Numbered from the stretch's first letter, positions 1 to 51,195 are shown. The stretch: DNA of 64,000 nt from a virus (IMGVR_UViG_2718218393_000006:1-64000); one strand, 5' to 3'. Translations and numbers: made by a program. The notes: generated by a model not told the origin, from the letters alone.

Positions 1-1065
1 TCACTTTGTCGGCATCACCTTCTTCCCCACCCTTCTGTAGACCGTCTCCGTGATTTGCTTGTCGGTATGGCCCAGCAGGTCGCTTGCCTGCTCCAGGCTG
101 TCGATATCGCTCGCGGCCCGTGGGCGGATGTCACGGAACTGGAACTGCCGGATCCGCCTAGCCAGATCCAGCGCATCTGGCGTGCCTGCCTTCAACGCCG
201 CCTCGATCGCAACCTCCCGGGCCGCATCCCAGCGCGCCCGCAAGGTCCAGCGATTGAGCGGATAGCCGCTGGCGGTAGACAGCAGCACCAGGCTATACAC
301 CTTGCGCGGTCTCCGCCTGATACGGTCCAGCAGCTGCCCCAACTGGGTGCGGCTACCATCCTCGGCATTCAGCAAGATGCGCAACTTGGCCCGCGTCTTG
401 TTCTGCCTCACCTCCAGCGCGCCATTGCGGATATCCGTCTCCTTCATCTTCAGCACATCCGCCGGCCGCTGGCCGGTCAGATAGGCCAGATCCATCGCAT
501 CCTGCAACTCCTCGCTGGCAACAGCGTAAACCGCGTCCCACACATCCTGTTCCGCGTAGTAATCGCGGGGCGTTTCCTTGTTCTTCCTCACGCCGCGGAC
601 AGGATTCTCCTTGGCCGTGTAGCCCCACTCCCGCGCCATGTTGAACACATGCGAAAACAACGAGATTTCCCGGTTGGCGCGCACCTTCGCAGACCGCTTG
701 TCCCGATACTTGGCGATGTGCTGCGGCGTGATGCTGTCGATCGGTGCAGAGTCAAACACCGGCCGCAGCTGGCGCAAGCTCAAACTGTTGTCCTGCTGTG
801 TTCGTGGCGCTTTATTCGGGATCACCTCCCGCTCGTAGCGCTCAAAAATGTGTTGCATCAGCCCCGTATCCACCGGCGCCGGCCGGCACTCAAACTCCGC
901 CCACTTGCGCAGCGCTTCATTCAGGTCCGTGCCCAGCGGCAGCTCCTTGCGCTTGCCCTCCTCATCGCGGCCATCGTAGTAGTAGCCCACCCACACCTTG
1001 CCGCTCTTCAAGCGCCGCCTACGCTCCAACATGCGCGGCGGCAGCTTCCGGCGCTTCGTCGCCAT
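1..1065 (-). CDS. int: Phage integrase (tyrosine recombinase)
   Basis: LTGQRPAD, QNKT, FRDIR, LLGH...VY catalytic motifs; N-terminal arm-binding region; start placed at MATKRRK. Confidence 0.93.
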   Translation of the reverse strand: MATKRRKLPPRMLERRRRLKSGKVWVGYYYDGRDEEGKRKELPLGTDLNEALRKWAEFECRPAPVDTGLMQHIFERYEREVIPNKAPRTQQDNSLSLRQLRPVFDSAPIDSITPQHIAKYRDKRSAKVRANREISLFSHVFNMAREWGYTAKENPVRGVRKNKETPRDYYAEQDVWDAVYAVASEELQDAMDLAYLTGQRPADVLKMKETDIRNGALEVRQNKTRAKLRILLNAEDGSRTQLGQLLDRIRRRPRKVYSLVLLSTASGYPLNRWTLRARWDAAREVAIEAALKAGTPDALDLARRIRQFQFRDIRPRAASDIDSLEQASDLLGHTDKQITETVYRRVGKKVMPTK

Positions 1066-1067
1066 AA

Positions 1068-1325
1068 CTACCTCACCTTCTCCAGATCCATATCCCAGCC
1101 GCCTGAGCCCGCCAGCTTGCCGGGATTGATCCCGGACAGCTTCAGCCTGGCGTACAGCCGTCCCACCACCGGATCGCCGGCGCGGGTGGTGTGATAGATC
1201 CAGTGATTGCTCTTGAGCCAATCCACTTGATCCTTTCGGCGCGAGCCGCCAGTGATAACCGTCAACTCCTCCGAGGTCAGCGTTTCACTTTGCAGCGCCA
1301 TATCCAACACCGATCCCATAGCCAC
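1068..1325 (-). CDS. Excisionase-like protein (DUF4224 type)
   Basis: Small protein directly upstream of int; LTxEELxxITG...QxxWL...G.PVV pattern. Confidence 0.75.
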   Translation of the reverse strand: MAMGSVLDMALQSETLTSEELTVITGGSRRKDQVDWLKSNHWIYHTTRAGDPVVGRLYARLKLSGINPGKLAGSGGWDMDLEKVR

Positions 1326-1326
1326 C

Positions 1327-4134
1327 TCACGGAATGTCGCGTTTGATCTCCGGCGCCGCCGACAGGCCCAACGCCTCCAGTTTGTTCAGGCTGATGGCCG
1401 TCATGTGGCCGATCCGCCGCCGGTCTATGGTCTTCTCCACGTCGTCCAGCATCTCGCCCCGCTTCACCGCCACCACGCCGCTGGCCAGCAGCTGGCTCTT
1501 GAAGATGCGGCCGGTTTTCACCGGCAGGCCATCGAACTTGGCGCGCAGGTGATTGGCGGTGGAAAGATGGTCCATGATGTGATTCGGCCGGATATACAGC
1601 AGCACGTCCGGGTTGCCCTCATCGTCCTGCGCGTCCTCCCAGCAGAACGGATGCTCGAAACGGCGGGCGTCCAGCTCGGACAGGGCGATTTCCATGATCC
1701 GCACCCAGGGCAGCCGCGTGCCGTCTGTCTCGGACAAGTGGCTGTTCATCTCCGCCAGCAAGTCCTCCACAAAATGGCCCTGGGCGGCGTCGATCTCGGC
1801 GAACTCGCAGAGCAGATGCCAGGCAGCCAGGATGGCGGCGTAGTTCTCCATCATCCGGTTGCTGGTAGCGTCCGCGTCGCCGGCGCGGCTCTTGGCCTGG
1901 CAGAAGCGCAGCATGCTCTTGTGCAGGTCGCGGATGCGCGCGGGCTCGGTGCCTGCCAGGAACTGCAGCCACGGCCACACAGGGAACTGCGGCAGCTCAT
2001 GCGGGATCATCGGCCCCTGCCGTTCCACCGTCAGCTTGGAGCGGCACACCTTGGATTGCAGGCTCTGGATGTCCACCTCTTCGCCGGCCAGCAGCACAGG
2101 GGCGCACATCAGGTACGGCGTCAGCGCCGCGCCGATCCGGGTGAACTCGAAGCGGTATGTGCTCTGCAGCAGGCCGTCGATGTCCGTCAAAATGGACTTG
2201 GGCAGCTTGGAGAATTCATCCCAGCCCACCGGGTTGGTGGTATAGGACACCGACGCGCGCCGGCGGTGGTCGGTCTTCAGCATCTGGCCAGACAGCACCT
2301 GAAACGAAAAGCTGCGCTGCATGCACTCCATCAGCTTGGACTTGCCGGAGCCCTTGTCCGCCTGCATTTCAAAGTGCGGGTAGAAGCCCAGCAGCATCTT
2401 CAAGTGCGCGCCCAGCGCCCACACCATGGGAATGGCCGCGGCGTTGTGCTTGAACGTCTCCTGGTAGGCGGCAATCACTTGCCGCGCCGCCTGCTTGCCG
2501 CCGCGGGGGAATGACAGGTTGTGATACAGGCACTGCCGGGCCGGCTCGGTGAAATAGCAGTCGTTGCCCTCCAGCGCCGCCAGCTCCCCGCCGCGCCACG
2601 CCAGGCCGACGAAGTTGACCACGTCGCGGGCGCCGATGTCGGCGGTGCGTTCCAGGATCGAAATCATTCGGGCGAACTCCTTGGGTTTCCAGATGTAGCC
2701 GAAGCGGCCGGCCCACCAATCCAGTGAAAAAATCTTGTCGTCGGTGATCACCGCGCGCTGCAGCGTGTTGCCGTGGCGCGCCACCTGGGCGCTCACGCCA
2801 AACACCGTTTCCGGCTGGTTGTCCGGCGTGCCGTTGATCGTGGCCAGATGGCTCTGGATCCGCAGGCGGGAAATGCCGGCGATGCGGAAGGCGCACAGGT
2901 CGCCAAACCCCTTCTCCTCCCGGCGAAACTTCCCGTCCTCGTCCTCGCAGTCCTTGTAGTCCTGCACGTATTGGGTGAAGTCGTCGGTCTGGCGAAAGCG
3001 CCAGTACACATTCCAGTCCAGCGTCGGCAGCCAGATACGCCGCCGGCCGTGCACCTCGTCCGCCGCGCCGGCCGGGTTGCCAGGAATCAGCCACGGCTCA
3101 ATCTGCTTCAGCCGCGCGCCCAGCCCCTCCGGGCCCTCGGCCTGCAGCACATCGTTGATGTCCTGGCCCTCCTCCCAATCCAGCATGTTGACGAAGCGGT
3201 TGGCGATATCCAGCGCCGTCAGCCGTTCATTCAACCGCCAGGCGGCGGCCAGGCCCGGGCGCGTATTGCTTCCCTCCTTCACCGGGTCCGTATGGTCCAG
3301 CGCAATTAGCACCTTCTTGCCGCGCAAGAACGAAAAGTCGATGCTCTCCACATTGCCCGTGCCGCGGATCGCATAGGCCACGTAGCCCTCCGGCCAGTAG
3401 CAGCTCTCCACCGACAGCGCATTGATGGGCGATTCCACGATGTACACCGTGTGGGCGCGCTTCAAGCGGCCCAGATCGCTGTACCAGCCGTAGCCGGATT
3501 TCTCGCCCTGGCACTGGGTTTTCACCCCGCCGTTCAAGCCCGGATCCTGATAGCGCATATCTACCGCCACCACCCGCCCCGGGTTCAGCGTGCGCACGAT
3601 GAAAGCCGCCGCCGCGCCACCGTGGCCGGGCTCGCCGGCCGGCACCTTGTTGGACGTCCAGTTGTTCCAGCCAATCATCCGGTTCTTCAACGCCATCGCC
3701 AGCGCCGCCTCGGTGATGCCCCGGCCCTGCAGGTACTCCAGCACCGGCTCAACCTCCTGCAGGCATCGATCCGCAATCCACTCCTCCGTCGATTTGCGCG
3801 CCGGCGCCGCCGGCGTGTCCGGCGACGGTATCGGCAGGCCGAACCAATCCCCCAACAGCCGGGCCGCCTCCATGTGATCGCCCGCCATGCCGGCGTAAAT
3901 CACCAGATCAATCGCCGTCCCGCCGTTACCCGTCGTGTGGTCCTTCCAGCCCGCCCCGTAGCGCCCCTTGTCCGCCCCGTGTATCGACAGGCTGGGCTGC
4001 TTCTCCTTGCGCGCCGGGCTGAAATAGTTGCCCCGCCCGCCGTCGCGGCGCATGCCCAAACGCGCCGCCACCTCATGCAAATCCAGCTCTTTCAGGCGAG
4101 CGAACCACTCCGCCATGCGCGGATTCTGTGCCAT
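1327..4134 (-). CDS. Phage primase/helicase (TOPRIM + P-loop NTPase)
   Basis: TOPRIM-like YIVESPINALS, IALD and GQDIND motifs; Walker A ADKGSGKS; Walker B VGWDE. Confidence 0.85.
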   Translation of the reverse strand: MAQNPRMAEWFARLKELDLHEVAARLGMRRDGGRGNYFSPARKEKQPSLSIHGADKGRYGAGWKDHTTGNGGTAIDLVIYAGMAGDHMEAARLLGDWFGLPIPSPDTPAAPARKSTEEWIADRCLQEVEPVLEYLQGRGITEAALAMALKNRMIGWNNWTSNKVPAGEPGHGGAAAAFIVRTLNPGRVVAVDMRYQDPGLNGGVKTQCQGEKSGYGWYSDLGRLKRAHTVYIVESPINALSVESCYWPEGYVAYAIRGTGNVESIDFSFLRGKKVLIALDHTDPVKEGSNTRPGLAAAWRLNERLTALDIANRFVNMLDWEEGQDINDVLQAEGPEGLGARLKQIEPWLIPGNPAGAADEVHGRRRIWLPTLDWNVYWRFRQTDDFTQYVQDYKDCEDEDGKFRREEKGFGDLCAFRIAGISRLRIQSHLATINGTPDNQPETVFGVSAQVARHGNTLQRAVITDDKIFSLDWWAGRFGYIWKPKEFARMISILERTADIGARDVVNFVGLAWRGGELAALEGNDCYFTEPARQCLYHNLSFPRGGKQAARQVIAAYQETFKHNAAAIPMVWALGAHLKMLLGFYPHFEMQADKGSGKSKLMECMQRSFSFQVLSGQMLKTDHRRRASVSYTTNPVGWDEFSKLPKSILTDIDGLLQSTYRFEFTRIGAALTPYLMCAPVLLAGEEVDIQSLQSKVCRSKLTVERQGPMIPHELPQFPVWPWLQFLAGTEPARIRDLHKSMLRFCQAKSRAGDADATSNRMMENYAAILAAWHLLCEFAEIDAAQGHFVEDLLAEMNSHLSETDGTRLPWVRIMEIALSELDARRFEHPFCWEDAQDDEGNPDVLLYIRPNHIMDHLSTANHLRAKFDGLPVKTGRIFKSQLLASGVVAVKRGEMLDDVEKTIDRRRIGHMTAISLNKLEALGLSAAPEIKRDIP

Positions 4135-4145
4135 GGTGTTCTCGC

Positions 4146-4556
4146 TTATCGGTAGGCAGGTGTGGCGCCGGCCAGCGCCAGATCAGCGGCGATCGCCACC
4201 CTCAGCCCGCAATCGTGGGCGAACAACACCGCGCGCAGCGCCGGCAGCGCCGCCATGCGCCAGCCGGTCACGGCCACGTTCGCCAGCCTGGCCACCACGT
4301 CGGTGAAATCCGGGTTGTCCAAATCCACCTCCGCGCCAGCCGCGTCCGCGTCAATCACCGCGCACGCCTCCTCCCACGGCACCGGGCACCCGTCCACCAG
4401 CCCCAGCAGCGAGCCATCCAGAGCATGCAGCGGAGCCACCGCCACCAGCCCCTGCTCCGCCACAATCGCGTGGCCAAAGCTGCGGAAGGCGCGCCTGTCG
4501 GCGCTGAACGGAAGTAAGGTCTTGATATTTGCCATTGCCACACCTGTTTGTTTCAT
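4146..4556 (-). CDS. Hypothetical phage protein
   Basis: Tightly packed in the early operon. Confidence 0.65.
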   Translation of the reverse strand: MKQTGVAMANIKTLLPFSADRRAFRSFGHAIVAEQGLVAVAPLHALDGSLLGLVDGCPVPWEEACAVIDADAAGAEVDLDNPDFTDVVARLANVAVTGWRMAALPALRAVLFAHDCGLRVAIAADLALAGATPAYR

Positions 4557-5101
4557 GCGCCGATCAAATTCAGCTGCGCGGTCGCCTCAAACATCCCGCA
4601 AAAGCTGGCCACAGCCTCCTCGATCGACATCGGTTTGATGCGTTCCGGCAGCGGCGCCACCCCCGCCAGAATCGGCCACTCCACCCCAGACTGCGGCATC
4701 AAGTCCCGCCGCTCCGTCGCCAGCAGCACCAGGTCCGCGCGGCGGATCTCCGCCCGGTCCTCCTCGCTCAGCTGCAAGCGGAACCGCAGCTCGATCGCTG
4801 CCGCCAGCAGCCCCTCCGTGTACTGGTAGCTCGGCAGCACCCGCTTCAGCGGCGTCACCACATCGCCCACATAGGCCTCGGCCGCGTCATGCAGCAGCCC
4901 GGCCAGCTGCAGCCTCGCCGGCAGGATCCGCGCCACCCGCACCGAATGCTCCGCCACGCTGTAAAACGGCCGGCACGCCCCGCCAAAGCGGCAGATATGC
5001 GCCAAGTGATGGACAATTTCATGGATCTCGATGTCCGCCGGCGACGGATGCAGCAAATCCACCAGCCGGCCCGTCACGGTTTCGATGATGGCCGTAGTCA
5101 T
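4553..5101 (-). CDS. HD-domain phosphohydrolase (YfbR-like deoxynucleotidase)
   Basis: RFGG...YSVAEHS...LLHDAAEAYVGD motif; start at MTTAII overlaps upstream stop. Confidence 0.85.
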   Translation of the reverse strand: MTTAIIETVTGRLVDLLHPSPADIEIHEIVHHLAHICRFGGACRPFYSVAEHSVRVARILPARLQLAGLLHDAAEAYVGDVVTPLKRVLPSYQYTEGLLAAAIELRFRLQLSEEDRAEIRRADLVLLATERRDLMPQSGVEWPILAGVAPLPERIKPMSIEEAVASFCGMFEATAQLNLIGA

Positions 5102-5403
5102 TCCGCGCGCTCCCCTGCAGCCTCCGCCGCCTTCACCTGCGCCAGCAGCGGCTGGATGTCGATATCGCCGGCCAGCAGCGCGCGCAGCACGCGGGCGTTG
5201 TGGCGGTTGATCTTCTCCAGCTCGATACCGTGGATATGCACCACGCTCACCAGCGTCTGCACCGGACGCGGAATGTTGCGGCCCGACTCGTAGCGGCTGC
5301 CGCCGGACTGGGTCACGCCAATGCGGCTCCAAAACTGCTGCTGGTTCAGGCCGGTCTGGCGGCGGATTTCGCGGGCGGTTTGGTTCAATTGGGTCTTCAT
5401 CAC
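5098..5403 (-). CDS. RsaL-like HTH transcriptional regulator
   Basis: NQQQFWSRIGVTQSGGSRYESGR resembles the Pseudomonas RsaL HTH signature (FWSRFGISQSCGSRFENG, recalled from memory). Confidence 0.75.
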   Translation of the reverse strand: MMKTQLNQTAREIRRQTGLNQQQFWSRIGVTQSGGSRYESGRNIPRPVQTLVSVVHIHGIELEKINRHNARVLRALLAGDIDIQPLLAQVKAAEAAGERAE

Positions 5404-5425
5404 GGGTTCCTTGAAAAAATAGGGA

Positions 5426-5767
5426 TCAGTCCAGAATCAGCTGGATGGCCGGCAGGTTTTCGTCCTTGCCATCCGTGGGCGCCAGCAGCCAGCGGCCAGC
5501 CGACTGCCTCACCAGCGCCAGCCGGTGGCGCTGGCACACCCCGCCCAGCTGCGCCGTGTCCTGAATCGGCCGGCCCAGGCGGATGAACAAGCCGCAGGTG
5601 GGGTGATAGCTGGCCAGCGCCTGCAGCGGCGTCTCGCGGTTGATGTCCGCCGCCACGTCGTCCACCCGGTCAAACCAGTGGTGCTGGCGCTCCAGCGCGG
5701 ACAGCACCGCGCGGTAGCTGTTGGTGTGGTGCTGCAGCGCTTGGGTGTAGAGGGTCGTCATCGTCAT
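5426..5767 (-). CDS. Hypothetical phage protein
   Basis: Operon position and strand. Confidence 0.6.
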   Translation of the reverse strand: MTMTTLYTQALQHHTNSYRAVLSALERQHHWFDRVDDVAADINRETPLQALASYHPTCGLFIRLGRPIQDTAQLGGVCQRHRLALVRQSAGRWLLAPTDGKDENLPAIQLILD

Positions 5768-5773
5768 CCCCCG

Positions 5774-6316
5774 TCACACCGGCAGCGACTGCTGTTTCAG
5801 CGCCGGGGCCAAATCCTCTAGGCTGCCCACGCCCTTGCCCAACATCCGGGACAGCTGCACCAGGTCGGAATACAGCTCCACCGCCGCGCCGCGTGCCTGC
5901 ACTGAGGCCAAATCGCGCACCAGCGTGCGCCGGTACTTCAGCGCCGCCATGAACTGGCTCTGCGACATCGTGGCCCCCACCCGCGGCGCCGCATGGCCCT
6001 CCAGCACATCCAACACCCAGCGGCGGAAATCGCGGGCGCGCTCGGTGCGGGCAAACATCCCCAGCAGATAGCAACCCCGCGGCGAAAAGATGCGCACCGA
6101 CTGCGAGCCGCCGGCAGTTTGCAGGTCCACTACTTGGGTCATGTCTTCGGTAAACTCGTCCGCATTCCGATTGAAAAGATCCGAGGCTTGGTCGGCACGG
6201 GAGTAACCCAAGGCTACAGAGATTTGCTGTCCCCTTAGCCACGGCCGGTTATGGATATCCACCACGTCAAATTCCACTTCCTGAAAGCTCAGCACTGCGG
6301 TATGGGCAAATTGCAT
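5774..6316 (-). CDS. BRO-N domain protein (antirepressor-like)
   Basis: ALGY...FNRNADEF...VRIFSPRGCYLLGMFARTERARDFRRWVLD; GGAG RBS before MQFAH. Confidence 0.85.
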   Translation of the reverse strand: MQFAHTAVLSFQEVEFDVVDIHNRPWLRGQQISVALGYSRADQASDLFNRNADEFTEDMTQVVDLQTAGGSQSVRIFSPRGCYLLGMFARTERARDFRRWVLDVLEGHAAPRVGATMSQSQFMAALKYRRTLVRDLASVQARGAAVELYSDLVQLSRMLGKGVGSLEDLAPALKQQSLPV

Positions 6317-6398
6317 TTCGTGTTCTCCAGAAATTGCCGGTAGGCCGGCGGTCCCTGCGTTTAAGAATTTTCGGAGGGGACAGAAGAGCTCTGTCCCC

Positions 6399-7040
6399 TT
6401 AGCCCGCCCTCCGCCGATACGCCCGGCGCAGCTGGGCCCGCGTGGTGCGCTGGCCGCCGCTGCCATCCAGCGCCACCAGCTCCCGCTCAATCTCTTCGCG
6501 ACTCGGGGCGGCATAGATCGCCGTGCTGTTGAGGCTGGAATGGCCCAGCGCGCTCTTCACGATCAGCAGCGGCTCCTTCGCCTCGCTGCTGCGCAAGATA
6601 TCCATCGCCCGGGTATGGCGCATCCAGTGCGGCGACACCGGCAGCGTGATGCCCGCCTCCGTCGCCCAGTGGCGAAACCGCAGCTGCACCGCCCGCGCCG
6701 TCAGCGCCTCGCCAAACCGGCCGGTAATCAGCGGATCGGCGCCGTTCTGCGACGGGTTCATGTTCAGCAGCGCCACCAGATGCATGCGCAGCGGCTTGGT
6801 CAGCAGCACCGAATGGTCCTGCTTGCCGCCCTTGCGGTGTGCCGCCGGGATGTAGAGATAGCCCGCCTTCAGCGCGTCCCAGGCATCCGCCAGGGACACC
6901 GCCAGAAACTCGCTGATGCGGCAGCCGCTGTAGTACAGCGCGCTCATCAGGTGGTAGTCCCGCTGGGCCAAGTCGTCGTTGGTCTTGTACGCGGCGTTGA
7001 ACAGCAGATGCCGCTCAGCCGGCGTCAAATAGCGTTTCAT
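6399..7040 (-). CDS. Small (213 aa) catalytic-domain-only tyrosine recombinase, FimB/FimE-like
   Basis: GCRISE, RKGGK, HWMRH, LGH and TAIY all intact; AGGAG RBS before MKRYLT. Confidence 0.88.
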   Translation of the reverse strand: MKRYLTPAERHLLFNAAYKTNDDLAQRDYHLMSALYYSGCRISEFLAVSLADAWDALKAGYLYIPAAHRKGGKQDHSVLLTKPLRMHLVALLNMNPSQNGADPLITGRFGEALTARAVQLRFRHWATEAGITLPVSPHWMRHTRAMDILRSSEAKEPLLIVKSALGHSSLNSTAIYAAPSREEIERELVALDGSGGQRTTRAQLRRAYRRRAG

Positions 7041-7060
7041 GGTTCTCTCCTTGAAAGTCG

Positions 7061-7396
7061 TCAGGCGGTGGCGGGCATGACAACCAGGGCGAAGTCCGCG
7101 CCTGGCTCCTCCGCGGCGTCCACCACCACATGCGTCGGGGTCACAGCCTGTACCCACAGCCACAGGCGCTTGCCGCACACCGTCAGCTGGATGTGCTCAT
7201 CCGGCAAAACGGCAAACCGGCTAGGCACCCGGTCCCGGGCCAAACACTCCACCGACAAGCCTCCGCCGTCGCGGCGGAAACAAACCGATGCCGAATCGGT
7301 TACGCCGTACACCACCGCCCACTCGCCCAAAGCGATATGAAAACGGCCAGAACGGTTTTGATGCCCAGGGGTAAACAGCTGAATCAGATTGCTCAC
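7061..7396 (-). CDS. Hypothetical phage protein
   Basis: Operon packing; start overlaps upstream stop. Confidence 0.6.
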   Translation of the reverse strand: MSNLIQLFTPGHQNRSGRFHIALGEWAVVYGVTDSASVCFRRDGGGLSVECLARDRVPSRFAVLPDEHIQLTVCGKRLWLWVQAVTPTHVVVDAAEEPGADFALVVMPATA

Positions 7397-7578
7397 TGCT
7401 TTCTCCTCATCAGAACCAGCGCGGTGCGCTTGATGCAGATCGCCAGCGCCGGGTTTTCCATGGCGGACTCGAACGGCTGCCGCAGCCTGGCGCGCTGATG
7501 CGCCACGCGCAGCGCCTGTTCGGTCAGTTCGCCAGCGTCGGGGTCGAGCGGGAGGGCAAGTTGCCGTTGGCGTCGCAT
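7393..7578 (-). CDS. Hypothetical phage protein
   Basis: Small ORF in the early operon. Confidence 0.55.
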   Translation of the reverse strand: MRRQRQLALPLDPDAGELTEQALRVAHQRARLRQPFESAMENPALAICIKRTALVLMRRKQ

Positions 7579-8054
7579 GGTTTCACCACCAGGCTGCCGA
7601 AACGGTTACGCAGCTCCACGATGGCGGCGATCCACTCCATCAGCTCGCAATCCACCTCGTTGAACTCGTCCTGGGTCACGATGCCGTCGGCCAGCGCCTC
7701 GTTCATGCAGCGGTGCACATCGCCGCCCTCGGCGTGGACCTTGTTCACCAGATCCAGCAGCGCGGAATCGGACACGTTGTCCAGCCTCGGCAACTGGTAG
7801 CGCGCGCTGTCAAACAGCCGGCACAGCGCGTCCAGCGGCGACAGGTCTTGGGTGATGCGCAACACCTGGATGAAGTCATCCAGCGTGGCTTTGTGGTGAT
7901 GGGTGACGGGCGCCAGCTTGTTGGTCAGCACGCCGGCGGAGACGCGCATCACGCCCGCCAGTTTGGTGATGCCAAAGGCCTTGGCCGAAAGATGCAGCGC
8001 GCCAAACACGTCGGCCGGGGCCGACGGCAGGCTTGCCGCCATGGAAGTGTTCAT
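7524..8054 (-). CDS. Phage regulatory protein, CII/YmfL family
   Basis: N-terminal HTH (LAGVMRVSAGVLTNKL); C-terminal ALADGIVTQDE motif; downstream of cro; AGGAG RBS. Confidence 0.8.
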   Translation of the reverse strand: MNTSMAASLPSAPADVFGALHLSAKAFGITKLAGVMRVSAGVLTNKLAPVTHHHKATLDDFIQVLRITQDLSPLDALCRLFDSARYQLPRLDNVSDSALLDLVNKVHAEGGDVHRCMNEALADGIVTQDEFNEVDCELMEWIAAIVELRNRFGSLVVKPCDANGNLPSRSTPTLAN

Positions 8055-8177
8055 TTGTATTAACTCCTGCTGGTTCCCACTTGTCGTGGGTCTAACAGGC
8101 GCCGATACTGGAGTTGCCACACCGTAGTATCAGCACCACCCCGCGCCGCCCGCACTTAGCCCGTGCCGGCGGCGCAC

Positions 8178-8390
8178 TCATTCATCCGGGTACAAAATCT
8201 TGGTGACCGGAATGTCCAAAACCTGTGCCAGCCGCTTTGCCAGATCGGGCGAGGCGTTGTCCTTCCTGCTTTCCAGGCGACTGATATGGCCTTGAGTTAC
8301 CGACACTTGCCGGGCCAATTCCGGCTGAGTCATTCCCATACGTTTGCGAGCCTCGCGCAGAGGGCTAAGCACCATTTTTATGTCCTCCAT
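8178..8390 (-). CDS. cro: Cro-like XRE HTH regulator
   Basis: LREARKRMGMTQPELA...QGHISRLE; divergent from the repressors. Confidence 0.85.
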   Translation of the reverse strand: MEDIKMVLSPLREARKRMGMTQPELARQVSVTQGHISRLESRKDNASPDLAKRLAQVLDIPVTKILYPDE

Positions 8391-8485
8391 GCATGTATGT
8401 CAGTTGCAAATATGTTCCATAGGCATTAAAAAGTCAACGATAAAATACATTACGCAAATATGCGCAACACACATAAAATTGGACA
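8391..8485. promoter_or_regulatory. Divergent immunity promoter/operator region
   Basis: Leftward TTGACT(8437-8432)-N17-CATATT(8414-8409); rightward TAAAAT (8474-8479) 6 nt before the repressor ATG; GCAAATATG repeated at 8406 and 8454. Confidence 0.65.
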
Positions 8486-8827
8486 ATGATCGGATCCCGC
8501 ATAAAAGAAGCTCGCAAGGCGCGAAAGCAATCCCAGCAATGGCTGGCGGACGAAGTGGGTGTCCTCCAGTCATCTGTCAGCGCGTGGGAAATTGGCCGTA
8601 GCGAGCCAACCACCGAAAACCTTTCGCGCATCGCTCAGGTGTTGCGTGTAAGCCATGACTGGCTAGCAACCGGTCGTGGTGGAATGCATCTCAGCGCCAC
8701 TCCCGTTCAGGTAAATGACCACGTTCCTCTCAATGCGGATGAGGCCGAACTTCTGGACAGGTACAGAACCCTGGGGGCAAGCACTAGACAAGCACTCATG
8801 GTGATCATGCGATCGCTCACCAAATAG
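8486..8827 (+). CDS. XRE HTH repressor, copy A (no S24 peptidase domain)
   Basis: RIKEARK...SQQWLADEVGV HTH. Confidence 0.88.
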   Translation: MIGSRIKEARKARKQSQQWLADEVGVLQSSVSAWEIGRSEPTTENLSRIAQVLRVSHDWLATGRGGMHLSATPVQVNDHVPLNADEAELLDRYRTLGASTRQALMVIMRSLTK

Positions 8828-8833
8828 CCCGCC

Positions 8834-9181
8834 ATGATAGGCAACCGAATCAAAGAAGCGCGGACGGCGCGTAAGCACTCTCAGCAGTGGCTGGCTGACG
8901 AAGTCGGAGTCACACAAGCCAGTGCCTGCAGTTGGGAGCAAGGCAAAACCGATCCCACAACCGAGAACCTCTCCCGAATCGCCCTAGTCCTGCGCGTCAG
9001 CCACGACTGGCTAGCCACCGGCCGCGGAGCGATGGAGTTGAGCTACGTTCCCGCTGAGATTCCACCTGCAGAACTACCACTGGGCGAAGACCAGAAGAAT
9101 CTTCTGGAGCTGTTCGAACAGCTCCCGCGGGACAAGCGCGCCACCCTGCTGCAGTTCATGCGTGACTGGCTGAAGAAGTGA
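8834..9181 (+). CDS. XRE HTH repressor, copy B (paralog of A)
   Basis: N-terminal ~67 aa closely similar to copy A. Confidence 0.88.
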   Translation: MIGNRIKEARTARKHSQQWLADEVGVTQASACSWEQGKTDPTTENLSRIALVLRVSHDWLATGRGAMELSYVPAEIPPAELPLGEDQKNLLELFEQLPRDKRATLLQFMRDWLKK

Positions 9182-9531
9182 AGCCCGCTGCCGCCCTCCT
9201 TGCCCTCTTCCTCGCCCTGCCGGCCGCCGCCGCGCCGCAAGCCGACGCCCGCGAGCTGCTGGACTGGCTGCACGCCGCCCGCGACGACATCAACCGGGCC
9301 GGGAAGGCAAAGGACAAGGTGGCGTTGGGCAGGCTGCGGCGCGAGGCCGCGCAGCGGCTGAACGCATGGCCGGAGAGCGCGGGCTTTCCTGACTGCCGCG
9401 CCGCGCTGGCGGAGATGGTGGATTTTCTGAACGCCTATCAGCGCAAGGACTACGCCGGGCGGGACCGGAACGGCTGGCGCTTCCGGCGGCATCTGGCCGG
9501 TTGCGAGCATGCAGTGGCCGGTAATTGGTAA
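9178..9531 (+). CDS. Putative secreted protein co-transcribed with the repressors
   Basis: Signal peptide MKPAAALLALFLALPAAA; GTGA overlap with repressor B. Confidence 0.7.
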   Translation: MKPAAALLALFLALPAAAAPQADARELLDWLHAARDDINRAGKAKDKVALGRLRREAAQRLNAWPESAGFPDCRAALAEMVDFLNAYQRKDYAGRDRNGWRFRRHLAGCEHAVAGNW

Positions 9532-9643
9532 AGGTGCGGGTTAGCTGGATCATCACGGTGTCCTTTTGTTATGCCAGCTAATTTTTCACCTCGTTTACAT
9601 TCCAGACAATCGCACTTCTGACATCAAAAACGACACAGTTCGC

Positions 9644-10366
9644 CTATACAGCGGTTAAATCTGCACTGATGTTGAACAGCCGCCGGACCAGGTCAATCCG
9701 GTTTCGCGCCGCGTGCAATCCCCTGATTTTATTGATCCTGTCGCGCACCGTCCTCACCGACACCCCCACCTCGCCGGCGATATCCTCGTCGCCCAAGCCG
9801 TCCAGCATGCGCTGCAGGATATGACAATCTCGTTTATCCAATCCCGACAGATCCGGCTGCTGATAGATCAGCCGGAGGGCGACATCCATCACCGCCGGCG
9901 CCAGCGCCTCAATCAGTTGTTGGGATAGCGGATCTTGCTCCACCTCCACGCCGGCGAAAGACAGCGCCAGCCTCACGTCTCCGCGCTGTTCCACCCAGCT
10001 GACGCCGTTCAGCATGTTGTTGTTGGCGGCGGCCTGGATGAATTTGCGCCGCACCGGGTCGCTGCTGACGGAGAGCAGCCGGGACCACAGCAACAGCTTG
10101 CCTTGCGGCCCATTCCAGACCGGGTCCCGCTCATGCGCGCCGCTGCGTGCGTAACCGGCCATCCACTGCTCGGACCAGCCGACATTTGCCAGCGCGAACA
10201 TCGCGCCGCCGCGCTGGGCGGCGAGAATCACGCGCGTTCCGCCGGGCAATAGCTGGTTCCAGGCGGCGACAAACTGCCGCAGCCCTTCCATGTCATCCAC
10301 TCGCACCAGGGTTTCCAGCAGCGCGAGCAGATGTTCGGTGAGGCGTCCTATTTGAGAGATCTGCAT
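9644..10366 (-). CDS. LuxR-family solo regulator (autoinducer-binding domain + HTH)
   Basis: WxxxY...DP...W...G AHL-pocket pattern (WMAGY, RDPV, LLWS, LNGV); C-terminal LuxR HTH (IAGEVGVSVRTV). Confidence 0.85.
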   Translation of the reverse strand: MQISQIGRLTEHLLALLETLVRVDDMEGLRQFVAAWNQLLPGGTRVILAAQRGGAMFALANVGWSEQWMAGYARSGAHERDPVWNGPQGKLLLWSRLLSVSSDPVRRKFIQAAANNNMLNGVSWVEQRGDVRLALSFAGVEVEQDPLSQQLIEALAPAVMDVALRLIYQQPDLSGLDKRDCHILQRMLDGLGDEDIAGEVGVSVRTVRDRINKIRGLHAARNRIDLVRRLFNISADLTAV

Positions 10367-10412
10367 GGCGTTTCATCGTGGTCTTCATTCCGTTCTAGTT
10401 AAAACTACGTAT

Positions 10413-10437
10413 AAAAAAACCCGCTGGGGAGCGGGTT
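10413..10437 (-). terminator. Intrinsic terminator ending the tail operon
   Basis: AACCCGCT-CCCC-AGCGGGTT followed by a T run on the minus strand. Confidence 0.75.
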
Positions 10438-10459
10438 CTCGTTAAAAATTCCTGCGGCA

Positions 10460-11062
10460 TCAGGCCGGAGGGGTGGGCCAGTCGATTTGCGTTGGGAATT
10501 TAGCCTGCTGCGGCACGCGCGACAACAGTACGCGGTAGCGCCGCCAGGCCGTCAGCAGCTCAGTCTCCGCGGTTGTGGCGATGCCAAGATCCGCGGCATC
10601 TTGCAAGGGCACAACCGCGGCGTCTGCCTGCGAGCGCCTGAAGGCAACCTCGGCCTCGGCGCTTGTCTTCTGCGCCGCTTGCAGCGCGGCAGCGTCTACC
10701 ACCCAGCCACGGCCATTCCAGACGCCGAACGGTGGCGGCTCCAACTCCGTGGCCCCCAGGCTCGCCGGCGTGTCGCCCAGTGCCGCGACAACCCGCTGCG
10801 CGGTGGACGTACTCCACAAAGGCACCCCGCGCCAATCTGGTAGCACGCGCCAGTTTCCGCCGGCCGCTGCCGCGGGCACCGTGCCGTCGTTCGCGCGGAA
10901 TGCCGCGGCGGAGCCGGCGGCGGCCGCCGGCGGCATGGCTTCGGCAGCCCAGGCTGGGATCAGATAGACCTCCCCGGCTTCGAGTGGCGAGCGCTGCGCT
11001 GTCGTTTCCCCGGTATATTCGCCGGTCTGAGGGTGATATCCGTAAACGGTTTTGTTTTGCAT
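10460..11062 (-). CDS. Tail fibre assembly chaperone
   Basis: C-terminal PLQDAADLGIAT...WRRYRVLLSRV...IDWP motif. Confidence 0.88.
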   Translation of the reverse strand: MQNKTVYGYHPQTGEYTGETTAQRSPLEAGEVYLIPAWAAEAMPPAAAAGSAAAFRANDGTVPAAAAGGNWRVLPDWRGVPLWSTSTAQRVVAALGDTPASLGATELEPPPFGVWNGRGWVVDAAALQAAQKTSAEAEVAFRRSQADAAVVPLQDAADLGIATTAETELLTAWRRYRVLLSRVPQQAKFPTQIDWPTPPA

Positions 11063-11072
11063 GATGGACTCC

Positions 11073-12326
11073 TCAGAACTTGATGCACGCGAGCAGCGCG
11101 ACGTTGCGGGGACGGGTTTCTGATGCGACCCGCGGCGCTCCCGACACCCCCGCCACGGTCCCATCCGTCGCATCGATCGTCGCCTGCCAGGCGGAGTTGA
11201 CCCCGGGCGATGGGAAGGTGATTCCCGCTCCAGTCGTCCAAACCTGGTTGACGTTGTGCCGGTGCCCCTGGAACGCATCGTATTGCAAGGTCCCGATTGA
11301 CCGTCCTGCATCTACGCCGCGCCCGCCATCCCAGCCCCGCACAAACTCGCCGCGTAGGTCGGGCAGATTGAAAGTCGTCGATCCGTCGCCGGCGCCGTAG
11401 GTGGTGCCGATAGCAGCGAACAGCGCGGCATAGGCGGCGCGGCTGACCGCCGAACCATTTGCCATCAGCCAGCCATTCGGGGGATTGGGCATGGCAAAAT
11501 TGGCGACCACTCCAGGCGGCGCAGCACTCGTCACGGCATTTGTCACGGCACTCGCCATTTGCGTGACTGTCACGCCGTCGGTGATGCCGTACCCCGCAAG
11601 CGTGGTCGGCCGGCCGCTGGTGATTTTGCTCCAGTCATGCCCCGGCACGTCGCCCCCGTTCATCTGCCGGGCTGCGGTGACGCGGCCACGGTCATCAACG
11701 GTGACGATACCGTATGTCCCAGTTGCCACCCCGCTAGGGCCTGAGTCGGCAACAGCCATCCACGCTGTCCAGTTTCCGGCATTCACCCGCATGCGAACCA
11801 TCCGAGACCCATCGGTGCCAAATGCGCTCTGGAAGGCCCAAGCTGATTGGCTGGTTCCCGTTGGCGGAATGTTGATCTGATTGGCGATTGTCAGCACAAC
11901 GCCGAAGTCGCTCGGTGAGTTTTTCGTTTTCGCTTTGTCGTATGGCACGGTCCCGGACATGCTGATGCTGTTGAGATCGGCAGGCAGGTCAACGTTGATG
12001 CCTAGCGCGTATTGCAGGGCTGCAGCCAGCTGCGACTTTGTCGCGCCGTCGGTGATGCCGTACCCATCCAGGGTGTTCGGCCGGCTGGCAGTGTTACCCC
12101 ACGCGATGGCGCGGATCGACTGTAGCAGCTGGTTGTTCTGGTCCGGCTTCAGCGCAAACCCAGCGCCTTCAACCACACTGGCCATCTCCTCCTGCCAGCT
12201 GTCGAACAGCTCATATCCCGGCGTCGTCGCCGGCTGCCCGGTTTGCGGATTGCCCGGGCCAAACCCGTGTTTGCCCGCGCCGAATTTGTCCCGCACCGGA
12301 TTGCGGTTGTCGCCTACTCGTCTCAT
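11073..12326 (-). CDS. Tail fibre protein with tail-collar domain
   Basis: Mu-type N-terminus (DKFGAGKHGF); two PxTLxGYGITD repeats; collar motif TFNLPDLRGEFVRGWD; ETRPRNVA C-terminus. Confidence 0.92.
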   Translation of the reverse strand: MRRVGDNRNPVRDKFGAGKHGFGPGNPQTGQPATTPGYELFDSWQEEMASVVEGAGFALKPDQNNQLLQSIRAIAWGNTASRPNTLDGYGITDGATKSQLAAALQYALGINVDLPADLNSISMSGTVPYDKAKTKNSPSDFGVVLTIANQINIPPTGTSQSAWAFQSAFGTDGSRMVRMRVNAGNWTAWMAVADSGPSGVATGTYGIVTVDDRGRVTAARQMNGGDVPGHDWSKITSGRPTTLAGYGITDGVTVTQMASAVTNAVTSAAPPGVVANFAMPNPPNGWLMANGSAVSRAAYAALFAAIGTTYGAGDGSTTFNLPDLRGEFVRGWDGGRGVDAGRSIGTLQYDAFQGHRHNVNQVWTTGAGITFPSPGVNSAWQATIDATDGTVAGVSGAPRVASETRPRNVALLACIKF

Positions 12327-45628: not shown

Positions 45629-46645
45629 TCAACGCGCGCCCGTTGGTTTGCGCGTCATCTCCCCCAGCAGCTGGCTAACCGGAGTGGAGACCTTGCTCAA
45701 CGGATTCGCTTTGTCCACGCTGCCCGTCAGCTTACGGATTGCCAGGTGGGTGTAGATGCTGGTGGACTTCGGGTCCGCGTGCCCCATCAGCTGCTGACGC
45801 TCCAGGACGTCCACCGCCTCCTCCGCTAACTCGGTGCCGTAGAGGTGGCGCAGGGCATGAGGGTGCAGCTGCGCCGCGGGAATCCCCGCCGCCATGCCAT
45901 GGCGCCGCAACATGGCAAATGCCCCCCGCGTGGAAAAGCGGCGGCGCTCGCCGTAGTACTCATGCGCCGGGCAGCGTCGGTTCCGGGTAGTCACGAACAG
46001 CACCTGGTCGCCATCCTCGGTGCCGCGATCGATCTCGGCCAGGCCAGGGTGCTCCAGGTACACGCGCAGCAGCAGATCCGCCTCCCGCGGGACTGGAATC
46101 AGGCGTTCCTTGTCGCCCTTCTCGATCGGCCGGATCGCCATCCGGGTTTCACCGTCGATGGTCTGCGTGGTCAGGTGCCCCTCATTCAGCCGAACCAGGC
46201 CGCTGATACGGACGCCGCAGCCGATCAGCACCGCCAGCATGGCCGCATCGCGCACGCCCTCAAAACGGTTGAAATCCGGGGCCCACATCAACCGTTCCGC
46301 GTTGCTCAACTCCATGGCGGTGGGCAACTTGCGCGGCTTGCGCGGATACGGGATCGAGGCGGCCGGGTCTCGCGGGATCGCCTTGCGCACAGACCAGAGA
46401 TATCGATACAGCTCGCGGATGCAGGCAACGTATGGCGTGCGGCTCACCGGCGCCAGGTGCAGCGCCTTGTGCAGGTATGGACCCGTGAAGGCCAGCAGCT
46501 GGTCCCCGTCTATGATCAGCGGATCTCGCCCATCCAGCCAGTCCTCAAACCTCTGCAGGATGTCGCGGTATGCCCGAATGGACCGATCCGCAAGTCCCTT
46601 GTTATCAGCTTTGAAGAGGAGAAACTCTTCCATCAGTCGATTCAT
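45629..46645 (-). CDS. XerC/D-like tyrosine recombinase
   Basis: SAM-like N-terminus (KGLADRSIRAY); GVRISG, EKGDK, HPHALRH, MGH and SIY motifs. Confidence 0.9.
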   Translation of the reverse strand: MNRLMEEFLLFKADNKGLADRSIRAYRDILQRFEDWLDGRDPLIIDGDQLLAFTGPYLHKALHLAPVSRTPYVACIRELYRYLWSVRKAIPRDPAASIPYPRKPRKLPTAMELSNAERLMWAPDFNRFEGVRDAAMLAVLIGCGVRISGLVRLNEGHLTTQTIDGETRMAIRPIEKGDKERLIPVPREADLLLRVYLEHPGLAEIDRGTEDGDQVLFVTTRNRRCPAHEYYGERRRFSTRGAFAMLRRHGMAAGIPAAQLHPHALRHLYGTELAEEAVDVLERQQLMGHADPKSTSIYTHLAIRKLTGSVDKANPLSKVSTPVSQLLGEMTRKPTGAR

Positions 46646-46682
46646 CACGGCTCCAAAAAAGGGACCCACTAGCAAAATAACC

Positions 46683-47040
46683 TGTGGAATTGTGGATTGC
46701 CGCCGAAACCCGGCTAAAACCCTGCCCAATCAACATTTTACCATTCCACAAAATCCACCAAAACAGGGTTTTCTGGGTTTTGAAACTGTGGGTCAAAAAA
46801 TAGGCAGCACTCCGAAACCGTGGATTGCCCTCACCTCCTTTTTTCTCCGCTTTCTTTCTCTTTCTCTTTGATTTTTTAAAAGAAAAAAGAAAGAAAACCA
46901 AGGGGCGACTGAAATCGCGCTGTGGAGAAATCGGCAATTCCGTGGAATAGAAAATGAAACCGTGGATTAAAAAACGAAACCGTGGGCATGCTTTTCAGCA
47001 AAATCAATGACTTGCAACGGACCAGCGTTCAAATCCACGG
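46683..47040. repeat. Iteron-like YGTGGA repeats around an AT-rich tract (putative replication origin)
   Basis: About 11 copies in both orientations, e.g. AAACCGTGGATT at 46815 and 46957; T-rich/A-rich tract at 46835-46898. Confidence 0.6.
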
Positions 47041-49513: not shown

Positions 49514-49939
49514 ATGGCCTCCATCCCCCACTTGATCCCGCAACCCGGCGGCCAGCCGGTGTCGCTCGTTCTGGCCCCGGTTCGTGCCGGGTTTCCGTCA
49601 CCAGCTGACGACTACCTCGACGACAGCATCAACCTGCATGAGTACCTGGTGGAGGATCCGCCGGCGACGTTCATCGTCCGTGTGCGCGGTGACTCCATGA
49701 TCGGCGCCGGCATCGACAACGGCGACCTGCTAGTGGTGGACAAAGGGCTGACCGCAAACCATGGGGACATAGTGATCGCCGTGCTAGACGGCGAGTTCAC
49801 CGTCAAGCGTCTGCACCGCATACGCGGTCACTGCGCGCTGATCGCCGAGAACCCGGCCTACCCTCCTATCCGGCTGGCCGATGGTCAAGAACTGGAGGTC
49901 TGGGGCGTGGTGCGCGGCTGCGTGAAACGGTTCCGCTGA
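49514..49939 (+). CDS. umuD: UmuD-like S24 protein
   Basis: AGFPSPA cleavage site; GDSM; FTVKRL. Confidence 0.93.
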
Positions 49940-51195
49940 TGTTCGCCCTGGTCGACGGCAACAGCTTCTATGCGTCCTGCGAGCGGGTATTCCGGCCCGA
50001 TCTCGCCGGCAGGCCCATCGTGGTGCTGAGTAATAACGACGGATGCGTCGTCGCCGCCAGCGCCGAGGCCAAGGCCTTGGGCCTGAAAATGTTCGGCCCC
50101 TTCTTCGAAATCGCCGGGCTCTGCCGGCGGCACAAGGTGGCGGTGTTCTCAAGCAATTACGCGCTTTACGGCGACATGAGCCACCGCATGATGCGCGTAC
50201 TGTCCGAGTTCGCGGTGGACCAAGAGGTCTATTCCATCGATGAATCCTTCCTGGAGATGGAGGGCATGCCCGATCTGGACAGCCACGGCCACCGCATCCG
50301 GCAAGCCGTTCTACAACGGGTAGGAATCCCAACATGTGTCGGGTTTGGCACATCGAAGACTCTTGCCAAGCTGGCCAACCGCGTAGCGAAGAAGCGCAGC
50401 GAATGGGGTGGCGTGTTCGCATGGGACTGGCTGACCGCGGCCGAGGCCGACGCTCTGATGGGGCGAATTCCCGTCGGGGATGTGTGGGGCATCGGCGGCC
50501 GACTAACCGAAAAGCTGGGCGCGATGGGCATCACCACCGCGCTGCAGCTCAAACGCATCGACCCGCGCCGGATCAAGCGTGCTTTTTCGGTCGTGGTGGA
50601 GCGCACAGTGCAGGAGCTGAACGGGGTATCCTGCCTGGCCCTGGAAGACGTGGCGCCGGCGAAACAGCAAATCATCGCGAGCAGATCATTCAGCGAAAAA
50701 GTCACCGACCTGGCCACCCTCGCCGCATCCGTCGCCCACCACGCCGCGCGCGGCGCCGAGAAGCTGCGCCAGCAGCGCAGCGCGGCCAAGTTGGTAGCGG
50801 TCCAAATTATGACCAGCCCGTTTTCCGATGAACCGCAATACCGACCCTATATCGTGGTGCCGCTTGTTCAGCCCAGCAACGACACGCTGCTGATCACCCG
50901 CGCGGCGTTGGCAGGCTTACGCCACGTTTACCGGCCAGGCTTCCGCTATCACAAGGCAGGCATCATGCTGCTTGAGATCGGCGACCAGGCCATACAGCAA
51001 TCGGACCTGTTCGCTGCGCCGCCTGATCCGCGCCGCGCGCGGCTGATGGCTGCGATGGACAAGATCAATCGGAACTGGGGACGTGGCACGCTGCGTACCG
51101 CCGCCGAGCAACTGACCGAGGGATGGCACATGCGGCAGGATCTGCGCTCGCCGTGCTACTCGACGCGGATTGACCAGCTATTGAGCGTCGGCTGA
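49939..51195 (+). CDS. umuC: Y-family DNA polymerase V subunit
   Basis: [21 protein letters not shown]; TGATG coupling with umuD. Confidence 0.95.

Follow-up and report, generated by a model that had tools for sequence, protein, structure and literature searches.

The window analysed here comprises the first 64 kb (64,000 nucleotides, IMGVR_UViG_2718218393_000006:1-64000) of a 110,355-bp IMG/VR provirus record (G000). The genes under study are a luxR-type gene beside the immunity region of a Chromobacterium prophage and an RsaL-like helix-turn-helix (HTH) gene in the early operon of the same prophage. The reading that we favour, with some confidence, is that the phage-owned luxR senses the acyl-homoserine lactone (AHL) of the host and acts on phage transcription, and that the RsaL-like gene is a separate regulator. 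The prophage can probably sense the density of the host population, and at high cell density AHL-bound LuxR would change phage transcription. A preliminary description of the window had proposed that the prophage both senses host AHL and dampens host quorum sensing (QS). The first part is supported by a phage LuxR with an intact pocket and by hosts that make AHL; the second, with the RsaL-like protein as the dampening partner, finds little or no support, the two genes being gained and lost independently.

The LuxR solo and its probable ligand

The window luxR is a LuxR solo with no cognate luxI adjacent. The lack of luxI described earlier for the window extends to the whole 110-kb record, in which the PF00765 profile had no match. 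This profile matched none of the standard control genomes, and Chromobacterium genomes therefore served as positive control; in these, cviI adjoined cviR in 20/20 genomes and never a phage-type LuxR. All close homologs of the window LuxR protein come from Chromobacterium. Hosts of the lineage make AHL from a distant cviI, an AHL synthase gene being present in every host genome searched.

The luxR product was matched by Autoind_bind (PF03472, 25.0 bits, cut-off 23). The GerE domain, proposed beforehand as the second diagnostic match, scored 21.7 bits (PF00196, cut-off 23.5), and was recovered by profile in the ortholog of a related prophage, G012 (33.4 bits for Autoind_bind and 29.8 bits for GerE). 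Autoind_bind scores across the orthologs were 33-57 bits. The best sequence match in the PDB was CviR of Chromobacterium violaceum (3qp6, E 7e-9), with both domains spanned. The C-terminal HTH is present, as the CviR alignment and full-length fold matches reach residues 170-230; in the E-L-G triad of GerE the L and G are kept and the E is replaced by Asp.

An AlphaFold2 model was built on a 38-sequence alignment (identities down to ~20%, CviR-like proteins included) and had a mean predicted local distance difference test (pLDDT) of 91.4 and a predicted template modelling score (pTM) of 0.77. The top Foldseek match, at E 8e-12, was full-length CviR, and superposition on its ligand domains (3qp1, 3qp8) gave a template modelling (TM) score of 0.75-0.77 and a root-mean-square deviation of ~3 A. 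The remaining Foldseek matches were only AHL receptors (TraR, SdiA, LasR, QscR, RhlR and CepR2). The W-Y-D-P-W-G pocket pattern first noticed by inspection was borne out by the alignment, in which W68, Y72, D81, P82, W94 and G121, and no other columns, were invariant in the 38 sequences. These six residues are the classical hallmark set (TraR W57, Y61, D70, P71, W85 and G113). In addition, S136 was nearly invariant and aligned with the pocket Ser of CviR (S155). Because of the CviR match, the AlphaFold2 model, the Foldseek result and the invariant hallmarks, the marginal Pfam scores are attributed to divergence, not decay. The window LuxR belongs to the AHL-receptor family, with pocket hallmarks and CviR-like fold intact.

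CviR (3qp1, 3qp5, 3qp6, 3qp8) is thus the best match in sequence and fold, with W84, Y88, D97, P98, W111 and the pocket Ser conserved. However, identity is only 20-27%, CviR Y80 is replaced by Trp, the recognition helix differs, the window luxR is not paired with cviI and no CviR box was found nearby. The two proteins also fall into separate, well-supported clades: a maximum-likelihood tree resolved the window LuxR group (100/99), the host CviR group (100/99) and a third group with other prophage LuxRs (94/88). Among 1.84 billion cluster representatives, relatives of the window LuxR were found in 71 clusters at E<=1e-3 and in 21 at E<=1e-10, and all named members of the group were Chromobacteriaceae (Chromobacterium, Pseudogulbenkiania and Paludibacterium). 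In the GenBank phage collection there was no DNA match to 4000-11500 and no LuxR protein match (tblastn, 1e-5).

The gene is a phage gene. In tblastn searches the order tail-fibre assembly, luxR and, encoded on the other strand, orf117 and cI was the same in four related prophages, those of C. piscinae DSM 23278 (G001), G013 and G012 and a more divergent IMG/VR provirus (L065), the LuxR proteins of which are 80%, 76%, 50-51% and 43% identical to the window protein, respectively. When 20 Chromobacterium species genomes were surveyed with CII and orf117 as queries, the lineage was present in 3/20 and luxR in 3/3; no lineage member without LuxR was found among these 20 genomes. Few proteins of the lineage evolve as fast as LuxR (in G012, 51% identical as compared with 89% for CII). 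Both of its domains are under purifying selection: the ratio of nonsynonymous to synonymous substitution rates (dN/dS) was ~0.2 for three unsaturated ortholog pairs, with 0.19-0.26 for the ligand domain and 0.10-0.12 for the DNA-binding domain. Ortholog identity was likewise higher in the DNA-binding than in the ligand domain (98.5 vs 80.6%; 62 vs 48%), which fits a fixed DNA target and a drifting or adapting ligand pocket.

A clade as divergent as this one (21 clusters at the stricter threshold), with Trp at the TraR Y53 position and an Autoind_bind score barely above the cut-off, would also suit a plain phage transcription factor that is ligand-independent or bound to a non-AHL ligand and has no QS input. 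We consider this unlikely, since, in a clade whose members are 20-30% identical, little or no change is seen at the six hallmarks and at the Ser that corresponds to CviR S155, the ligand domain is constrained (dN/dS as above) and the hosts carry an AHL synthase gene. Binding of host AHL by the window LuxR is the likely alternative, and the AHL bound would be of the C6-C10 type.

The luxR locus and the phage switch

The preliminary description placed luxR beyond the terminator of the tail operon and converging on the repressor operon, and both points hold (Table 1). The tail-fibre-assembly gene is followed by an intrinsic terminator (-15.4 kcal/mol, z -5.3, with a U7 run after the stem) that was conserved in five prophages, with a compensatory stem change in G001, and luxR (-) is convergent with the (+) operon encoding the 113-residue HTH protein, the 115-residue HTH protein and orf117. 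Downstream of luxR no comparable terminator was present on the luxR strand, so that transcripts of luxR may extend into orf117 and cI in antisense orientation.

A 20-mer, TACGTAGTTTTAACTAGAAC, lies between the tail-operon terminator and the luxR start. All of its positions but the central two (TA or CC) were invariant in the five prophages, and it was kept despite a strongly diverged leader and protein (LuxR down to 43% identical). Each related prophage had one copy, and the sequence was unique in the window; the core palindrome is TAGT-N4-ACTA (0.03 expected by chance). An exact-pattern scan of IMG/VR with the 19-mer upstream of luxR returned members of this lineage only. Judged by its conservation, TACGTAGTTTTAACTAGAAC is the best candidate for the luxR promoter/operator and probably has that role. 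A sigma-70 promoter for luxR was not convincingly assignable; TAGAAC is a possible -10, and no -35 was seen. A second conserved block, the 18-mer GATGTCAGnnGTGCGATT, lies just 3' of the stop codon of luxR, in the DNA between the two convergent genes, and was partly retained even in the most divergent relative. An Rfam scan of 4500-11000 gave no match, a generic inverted-repeat scan of 4000-11500 found no lux-box-like site in intergenic DNA, and no LexA box (CTGT-N8-ACAG) was found.

The two repressors matched HTH_3, HTH_19 and Phage_CI_repr only and have no Peptidase_S24 domain, as had been noticed before; from this domain content both are predicted not to be RecA-cleavable. LuxR is not the sole candidate for a non-SOS input, because the early operon also has a Bro-N/Ant gene, for which tblastn gave no match in the four relatives.

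A Chromobacteriaceae-specific clade of LuxR solos is found next to immunity genes, and the prophage backbones involved are unrelated and number at least three or four. Backbones B, C and D differ from that of the window prophage and carry the LuxRs of the third tree group. Backbone B is a second prophage of the same record, the two LuxR genes being ~80 kb apart. It has an XRE gene (124 aa), a 28-bp spacer and luxR2 (262 aa; Autoind_bind 57 bits), with a ParA-like gene adjoining, and its early genes encode AAA_24, SSB, an RsaL-like HTH (78 bits) between SSB and RdgC, RdgC itself and a C5 methylase. The xre, luxR2 and ParA-like genes and the RsaL-like gene lie at 88481-91174 and 98884-99297 of the record (L026 4481-7174, 14884-15297), with the xre-luxR operon at 88481-89672; no convincing small open reading frame (smORF) was found between xre and parA. 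The same operon was found in G010, in G019 and in five IMG/VR proviruses. Backbone C is a lambdoid prophage, present in G007 and in two IMG/VR proviruses, in which luxR is flanked by a divergent small ORF (92 aa) and an RsaL-like gene on one side and by a convergent orf112-XRE-CI block on the other. Backbone D is represented by ten or more loci, with no XRE_B/CI_A homologs and no RsaL-like gene in the flanks. A LuxR solo of the same broad group at G019:C9 (L010 / L030) adjoins a gene of the DarT family (ssDNA ADP-ribosyltransferase), not XRE.

A phage LuxR receptor next to an XRE regulator is of a kind already established. To our knowledge, phage QS receptors are known experimentally from few systems only, namely Vibrio VP882, Aeromonas ARM81ld/Apop and the Phaeobacter prophages. 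Published phage XRE-LuxR modules govern lysis-lysogeny (PMC6456758, PMC10432266, PMC13345283). In the Aeromonas phages an xre-luxR operon located near par acts with C4-homoserine lactone to activate a counter-oriented smORF, which inactivates cI (PMC10432266). A Phaeobacter inhibens polylysogen has integrated prophages with xre-luxR-luxI, and QS input sets lysogeny vs lysis (Bunsick et al. 2026 preprint, PMC13345283).

With the Aeromonas phages (Silpe & Bassler 2019, PMC6456758; Silpe et al. 2023, PMC10432266) the window prophage shares a LuxR solo remote from the host receptor, an AHL-making host and an XRE-type neighbour, and the second prophage of the record shares the xre-luxR operon beside a ParA-like gene. 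In contrast, the window luxR forms a monocistronic unit that converges on the cI operon, a search for a counter-oriented smORF gave none, and the phage is an integrated one with a tail of the contractile type, whereas the Aeromonas phages are linear and plasmid-like. There was also no detectable sequence similarity to the LuxRs of phage records in the tblastn search described above. The Phaeobacter case is alike in that two LuxR-bearing prophages occur in one record and each Phaeobacter prophage has LuxR next to XRE; the Chromobacterium prophages, however, have no luxI and can therefore only listen to the AHL of the host or of neighbours. The window prophage thus adds a variant layout to the established kind: a monocistronic luxR that converges on cI, carried by an integrated phage whose tail is contractile. 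A literature search found no description of phage LuxR receptors in Chromobacterium.

A role of the window LuxR in phage fate is favoured mainly because layout B matches that of Apop/ARM81ld and resembles the Phaeobacter prophage operons. By this analogy we infer a lysis-lysogeny role, and tentatively suggest that AHL-LuxR feeds into the decision, in one direction or the other. As luxR lacks a terminator of its own, one possible route would be luxR transcription that runs convergently into the operon of cI and orf117; in another, LuxR would act on some phage promoter.

Several observations weigh against such a role, or against AHL sensing itself. The palindromic core of TACGTAGTTTTAACTAGAAC is only 12 bp, below the typical length of lux boxes, and the element may therefore belong to another regulator. 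The CviR box CTGNCCNNNNGGNCAG had 5 matches as compared with 4.97 expected, and none in the early or immunity region. No plausible conserved candidate for a counter-oriented smORF was found beside the window luxR, where the tail terminator and the tail-fibre-assembly gene lie upstream. The gene is not in an operon with xre, being monocistronic and convergent with the two cI genes and orf117. The divergence of LuxR does not follow that of CI/Cro: in two relatives the CI/Cro pair is only ~40-60% identical, which probably reflects a different immunity, yet LuxR stays 76-80% identical and so does not co-vary with the repressor. The GerE score of the window protein is just under the Pfam cut-off, and the TraR Y53 / CviR Y80 position is Trp throughout the phage clade and Tyr in CviR-like sequences. 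As neither smORF, CviR box nor LexA box was found, the link between LuxR and induction in the window prophage remains one of analogy.

Some of these features are also those of a lysogenic-conversion moron, in which LuxR in the lysogen would act mainly on host promoters, or on host CviR through AHL competition or mixed dimers, and the host QS regulon (defence, receptor expression, violacein) would be rewired in place of the phage switch. The terminator, the short conserved promoter-like block, the single gene and the slot after the tail-fibre genes form a typical moron layout; the neighbouring orf117 product is secreted, as is typical for conversion or exclusion genes; no phage target site was identified; and LuxR does not co-vary with CI/Cro. 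Nevertheless, the clade adjoins XRE/CI genes in several unrelated backbones and forms an xre-luxR operon in others, a layout that controls phage fate in the published cases. Conversion is therefore regarded as the less probable explanation, although a serious one, and action of LuxR on phage transcription is preferred.

The RsaL-like gene and its pairing with luxR

The open reading frame (ORF) at 5098-5403 is assigned by profile to PF22495 as a genuine RsaL-like HTH (85.9 bits, cut-off 27), in agreement with the preliminary description, and its best match in the PDB was Pseudomonas aeruginosa RsaL (5j2y, E 3.8e-8). Both proteins belong to the same tetrahelical HTH family and have the signature FWSR.G..QS.GSR.E.G. 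Unlike RsaL, the phage protein has a C-terminal extension, relatives in Ralstonia and Pseudomonas phages and a core paralog in each Chromobacterium genome searched. Its gene is part of a phage early operon, co-directional with and downstream of the Cro-like HTH and CII genes as first described, and 4.2 kb from luxR. The location typical of rsaL, between luxR and luxI and divergent from luxI, was not found, there being no luxI in the record.

A core chromosomal PF22495 gene (~107 aa, 97 bits) was found once in each of the 20 Chromobacterium genomes. In G013, the sole neighbourhood inspected (G013:C1:2244739-2244873; L045 5710-6033), its product is 49% identical to the phage protein, and the gene lies among a peptidase gene, a transporter gene and genes of no assigned role, ~1.9 Mb from cviI/cviR. 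The 20 genomes also had 12 accessory RsaL-like copies, about half of them within 11 kb of a LuxR solo; seven accessory loci had no LuxR within 10 kb. Phage records of Ralstonia (31) and Pseudomonas (2) contain relatives at ~38% identity, with transcriptional regulator or hypothetical protein as their annotation.

In the G012 prophage luxR is kept, and exactly in the RsaL-like slot, flanked by the orf113 homolog and the HD phosphatase gene, is an unrelated ORF (L018 4606-5049). By eye its product looks like a winged-helix DNA-binding protein, and the slot looks like a non-orthologous replacement of a regulator cassette. In backbone B it is LuxR that varies, being absent in G019:C6 and G012:C5, and the SSB-RsaL-RdgC block that is constant. 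In lineage C the LuxR and RsaL-like genes are adjacent in 3/3 loci. Co-occurrence of the two genes in relatives, which had been expected of a joint switch, is thus frequent, yet not obligatory, and is confounded by shared backbones: the genes are together in several prophages, but not in G012 or at the seven accessory loci. Our preferred reading of the RsaL-like HTH is a phage regulator of the early operon that stands apart from LuxR, in a slot where cassettes can be exchanged, and is not an obligate partner of it.

A coupled circuit, with host AHL detected by LuxR and host cviI or QS-controlled genes repressed by an RsaL-like protein that is produced once the prophage is induced, would account for the presence of both genes in the window prophage and the second prophage of the record, as well as in G001, G013, G010 and G007:C82, and for their adjacent, divergent arrangement in the three lineage-C proviruses; the RsaL-like protein is, moreover, a true member of PF22495 with RsaL as best solved relative. 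Independent gain and loss speaks against it, as in G012, where a different HTH gene occupies the slot, at no fewer than ten L012-type LuxR loci, at G019:C9 and at G007:C44, where the stretches searched contained no RsaL-like gene, and at the accessory loci devoid of LuxR. The Ralstonia and Pseudomonas phage records have the RsaL-like gene and no phage record matched LuxR; the core PF22495 gene is present in 20/20 host genomes and is unlinked to cviI/cviR in G013; and the rsaL-luxI linkage that defines the family is absent. We consider such coupling improbable. The same holds for its extension to a two-part circuit that recurs in unrelated Chromobacterium prophages, with AHL read in the lysogen via a promoter controlled by the 19-mer and an induction-time RsaL-like protein that shuts host AHL synthesis or QS-controlled defences; if it were true, two side-by-side prophages would compete through the same host signal.

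An anti-QS role of the RsaL-like protein is putative. Visual inspection of the DNA 5' of cviI and 5' of the core PF22495 gene of the host yielded no usable RsaL-type operator. A DNA target shared by the phage protein and the host core paralog was considered and dropped, because the identical helix residues are a family-wide Pfam signature and occur also in P. aeruginosa RsaL.

Layout of the prophage and significance

A single temperate prophage of Chromobacterium, with a CI/Cro/CII switch and a contractile tail module of the Mu type, takes up positions 1 to ~45 kb. Its left end has an integrase gene at 1-1221(-), followed by a Toprim primase gene at 1327-4134(-). The early operon (-) encodes, in order, the Cro-like HTH, CII, two small ORFs, a short tyrosine recombinase, Bro-N/Ant, orf113, the RsaL-like HTH, an HD-type deoxynucleoside monophosphate (dNMP) phosphatase and orf136. 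Divergent from it is the immunity operon (+), with two paralogous CI-type repressors and then orf117. The Mu-type tail genes (-) extend from 10460 upward, with tail-fibre assembly, a tail fibre with a Collar domain, Baseplate_J and onward.

Table 1. Features of the luxR locus, immunity region and early operon (window coordinates)
Feature	Position	Strand	Remarks
luxR solo, 240 aa	9644-10366	-	N-terminal AHL-binding-type domain and C-terminal GerE-type HTH; Pfam, CviR match, AlphaFold2
Intrinsic terminator, tail operon	10413-10440	-	stem ACCCGC/GCGGGT and U7
20-mer TACGTAGTTTTAACTAGAAC, probable luxR promoter/operator	10392-10411	-	between terminator and luxR start
Conserved 18-mer GATGTCAGAAGTGCGATT	9608-9625	-	directly 3' of luxR stop
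Hairpin and U-run, terminator of cI-orf117 operon	9538-9589	+	weak on luxR strand, no U-run there
orf117, signal-peptide protein, last immunity-operon gene	9178-9531	+	conserved partner of luxR slot
CI-type repressor paralog 2, 115 aa	8834-9181	+	HTH_3/Phage_CI_repr, no S24
CI-type repressor paralog 1, 113 aa	8486-8827	+	HTH_3/Phage_CI_repr, no S24
Divergent switch region	8391-8485	.	promoter-like hexamers and repeated GCAAATATG motif
Cro-like XRE HTH, 70 aa, opens early operon	8178-8390	-	
CII (Phage_CP76) activator	7524-8120	-	
Bro-N/Ant anti-repressor-like gene	5774-6400	-	early operon; this lineage member only
RsaL-like HTH (PF22495), 101 aa	5098-5403	-	early operon, between orf113 and HD phosphatase

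The CI-type repressor is a tandem duplicate in the window prophage and in G012 (paralogs ~55-60% identical, tblastn) and is single in G001, G013 and L065. The orf117 product has a clear N-terminal signal peptide and is conserved in all five prophages of the lineage. It matched no Pfam or PHROG family, and the ESM Atlas gave only unnamed clusters with scores <0.9; it may be an exclusion or conversion protein.

The short tyrosine recombinase inside the early operon (6399-7178(-), ~218 conserved residues, Phage_integrase domain only) is additional to the terminal integrase and is conserved in the four relatives. Another prophage starts from ~45.6 kb, with a second integrase (45629-46729) and a UmuC/ImpB-type polymerase gene (49939-51195), and is also marked by a lambda-type GpJ tail-tip gene (56018-59674).

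As the classic reporter organism for AHL, Chromobacterium offers mutants, a purple read-out and solved CviR structures, which makes the prediction easy to test. The conserved 19-mer before luxR is a concrete cis element for such testing. In C. subtsugae, transcriptomics showed QS-dependent up-regulation of a Mu-like prophage (PMC12114271), and a phage LuxR could explain this QS-dependent prophage expression. More generally, the LuxR system could reveal whether integrated, non-plasmid prophages also time lysis or lysogeny by host AHL.

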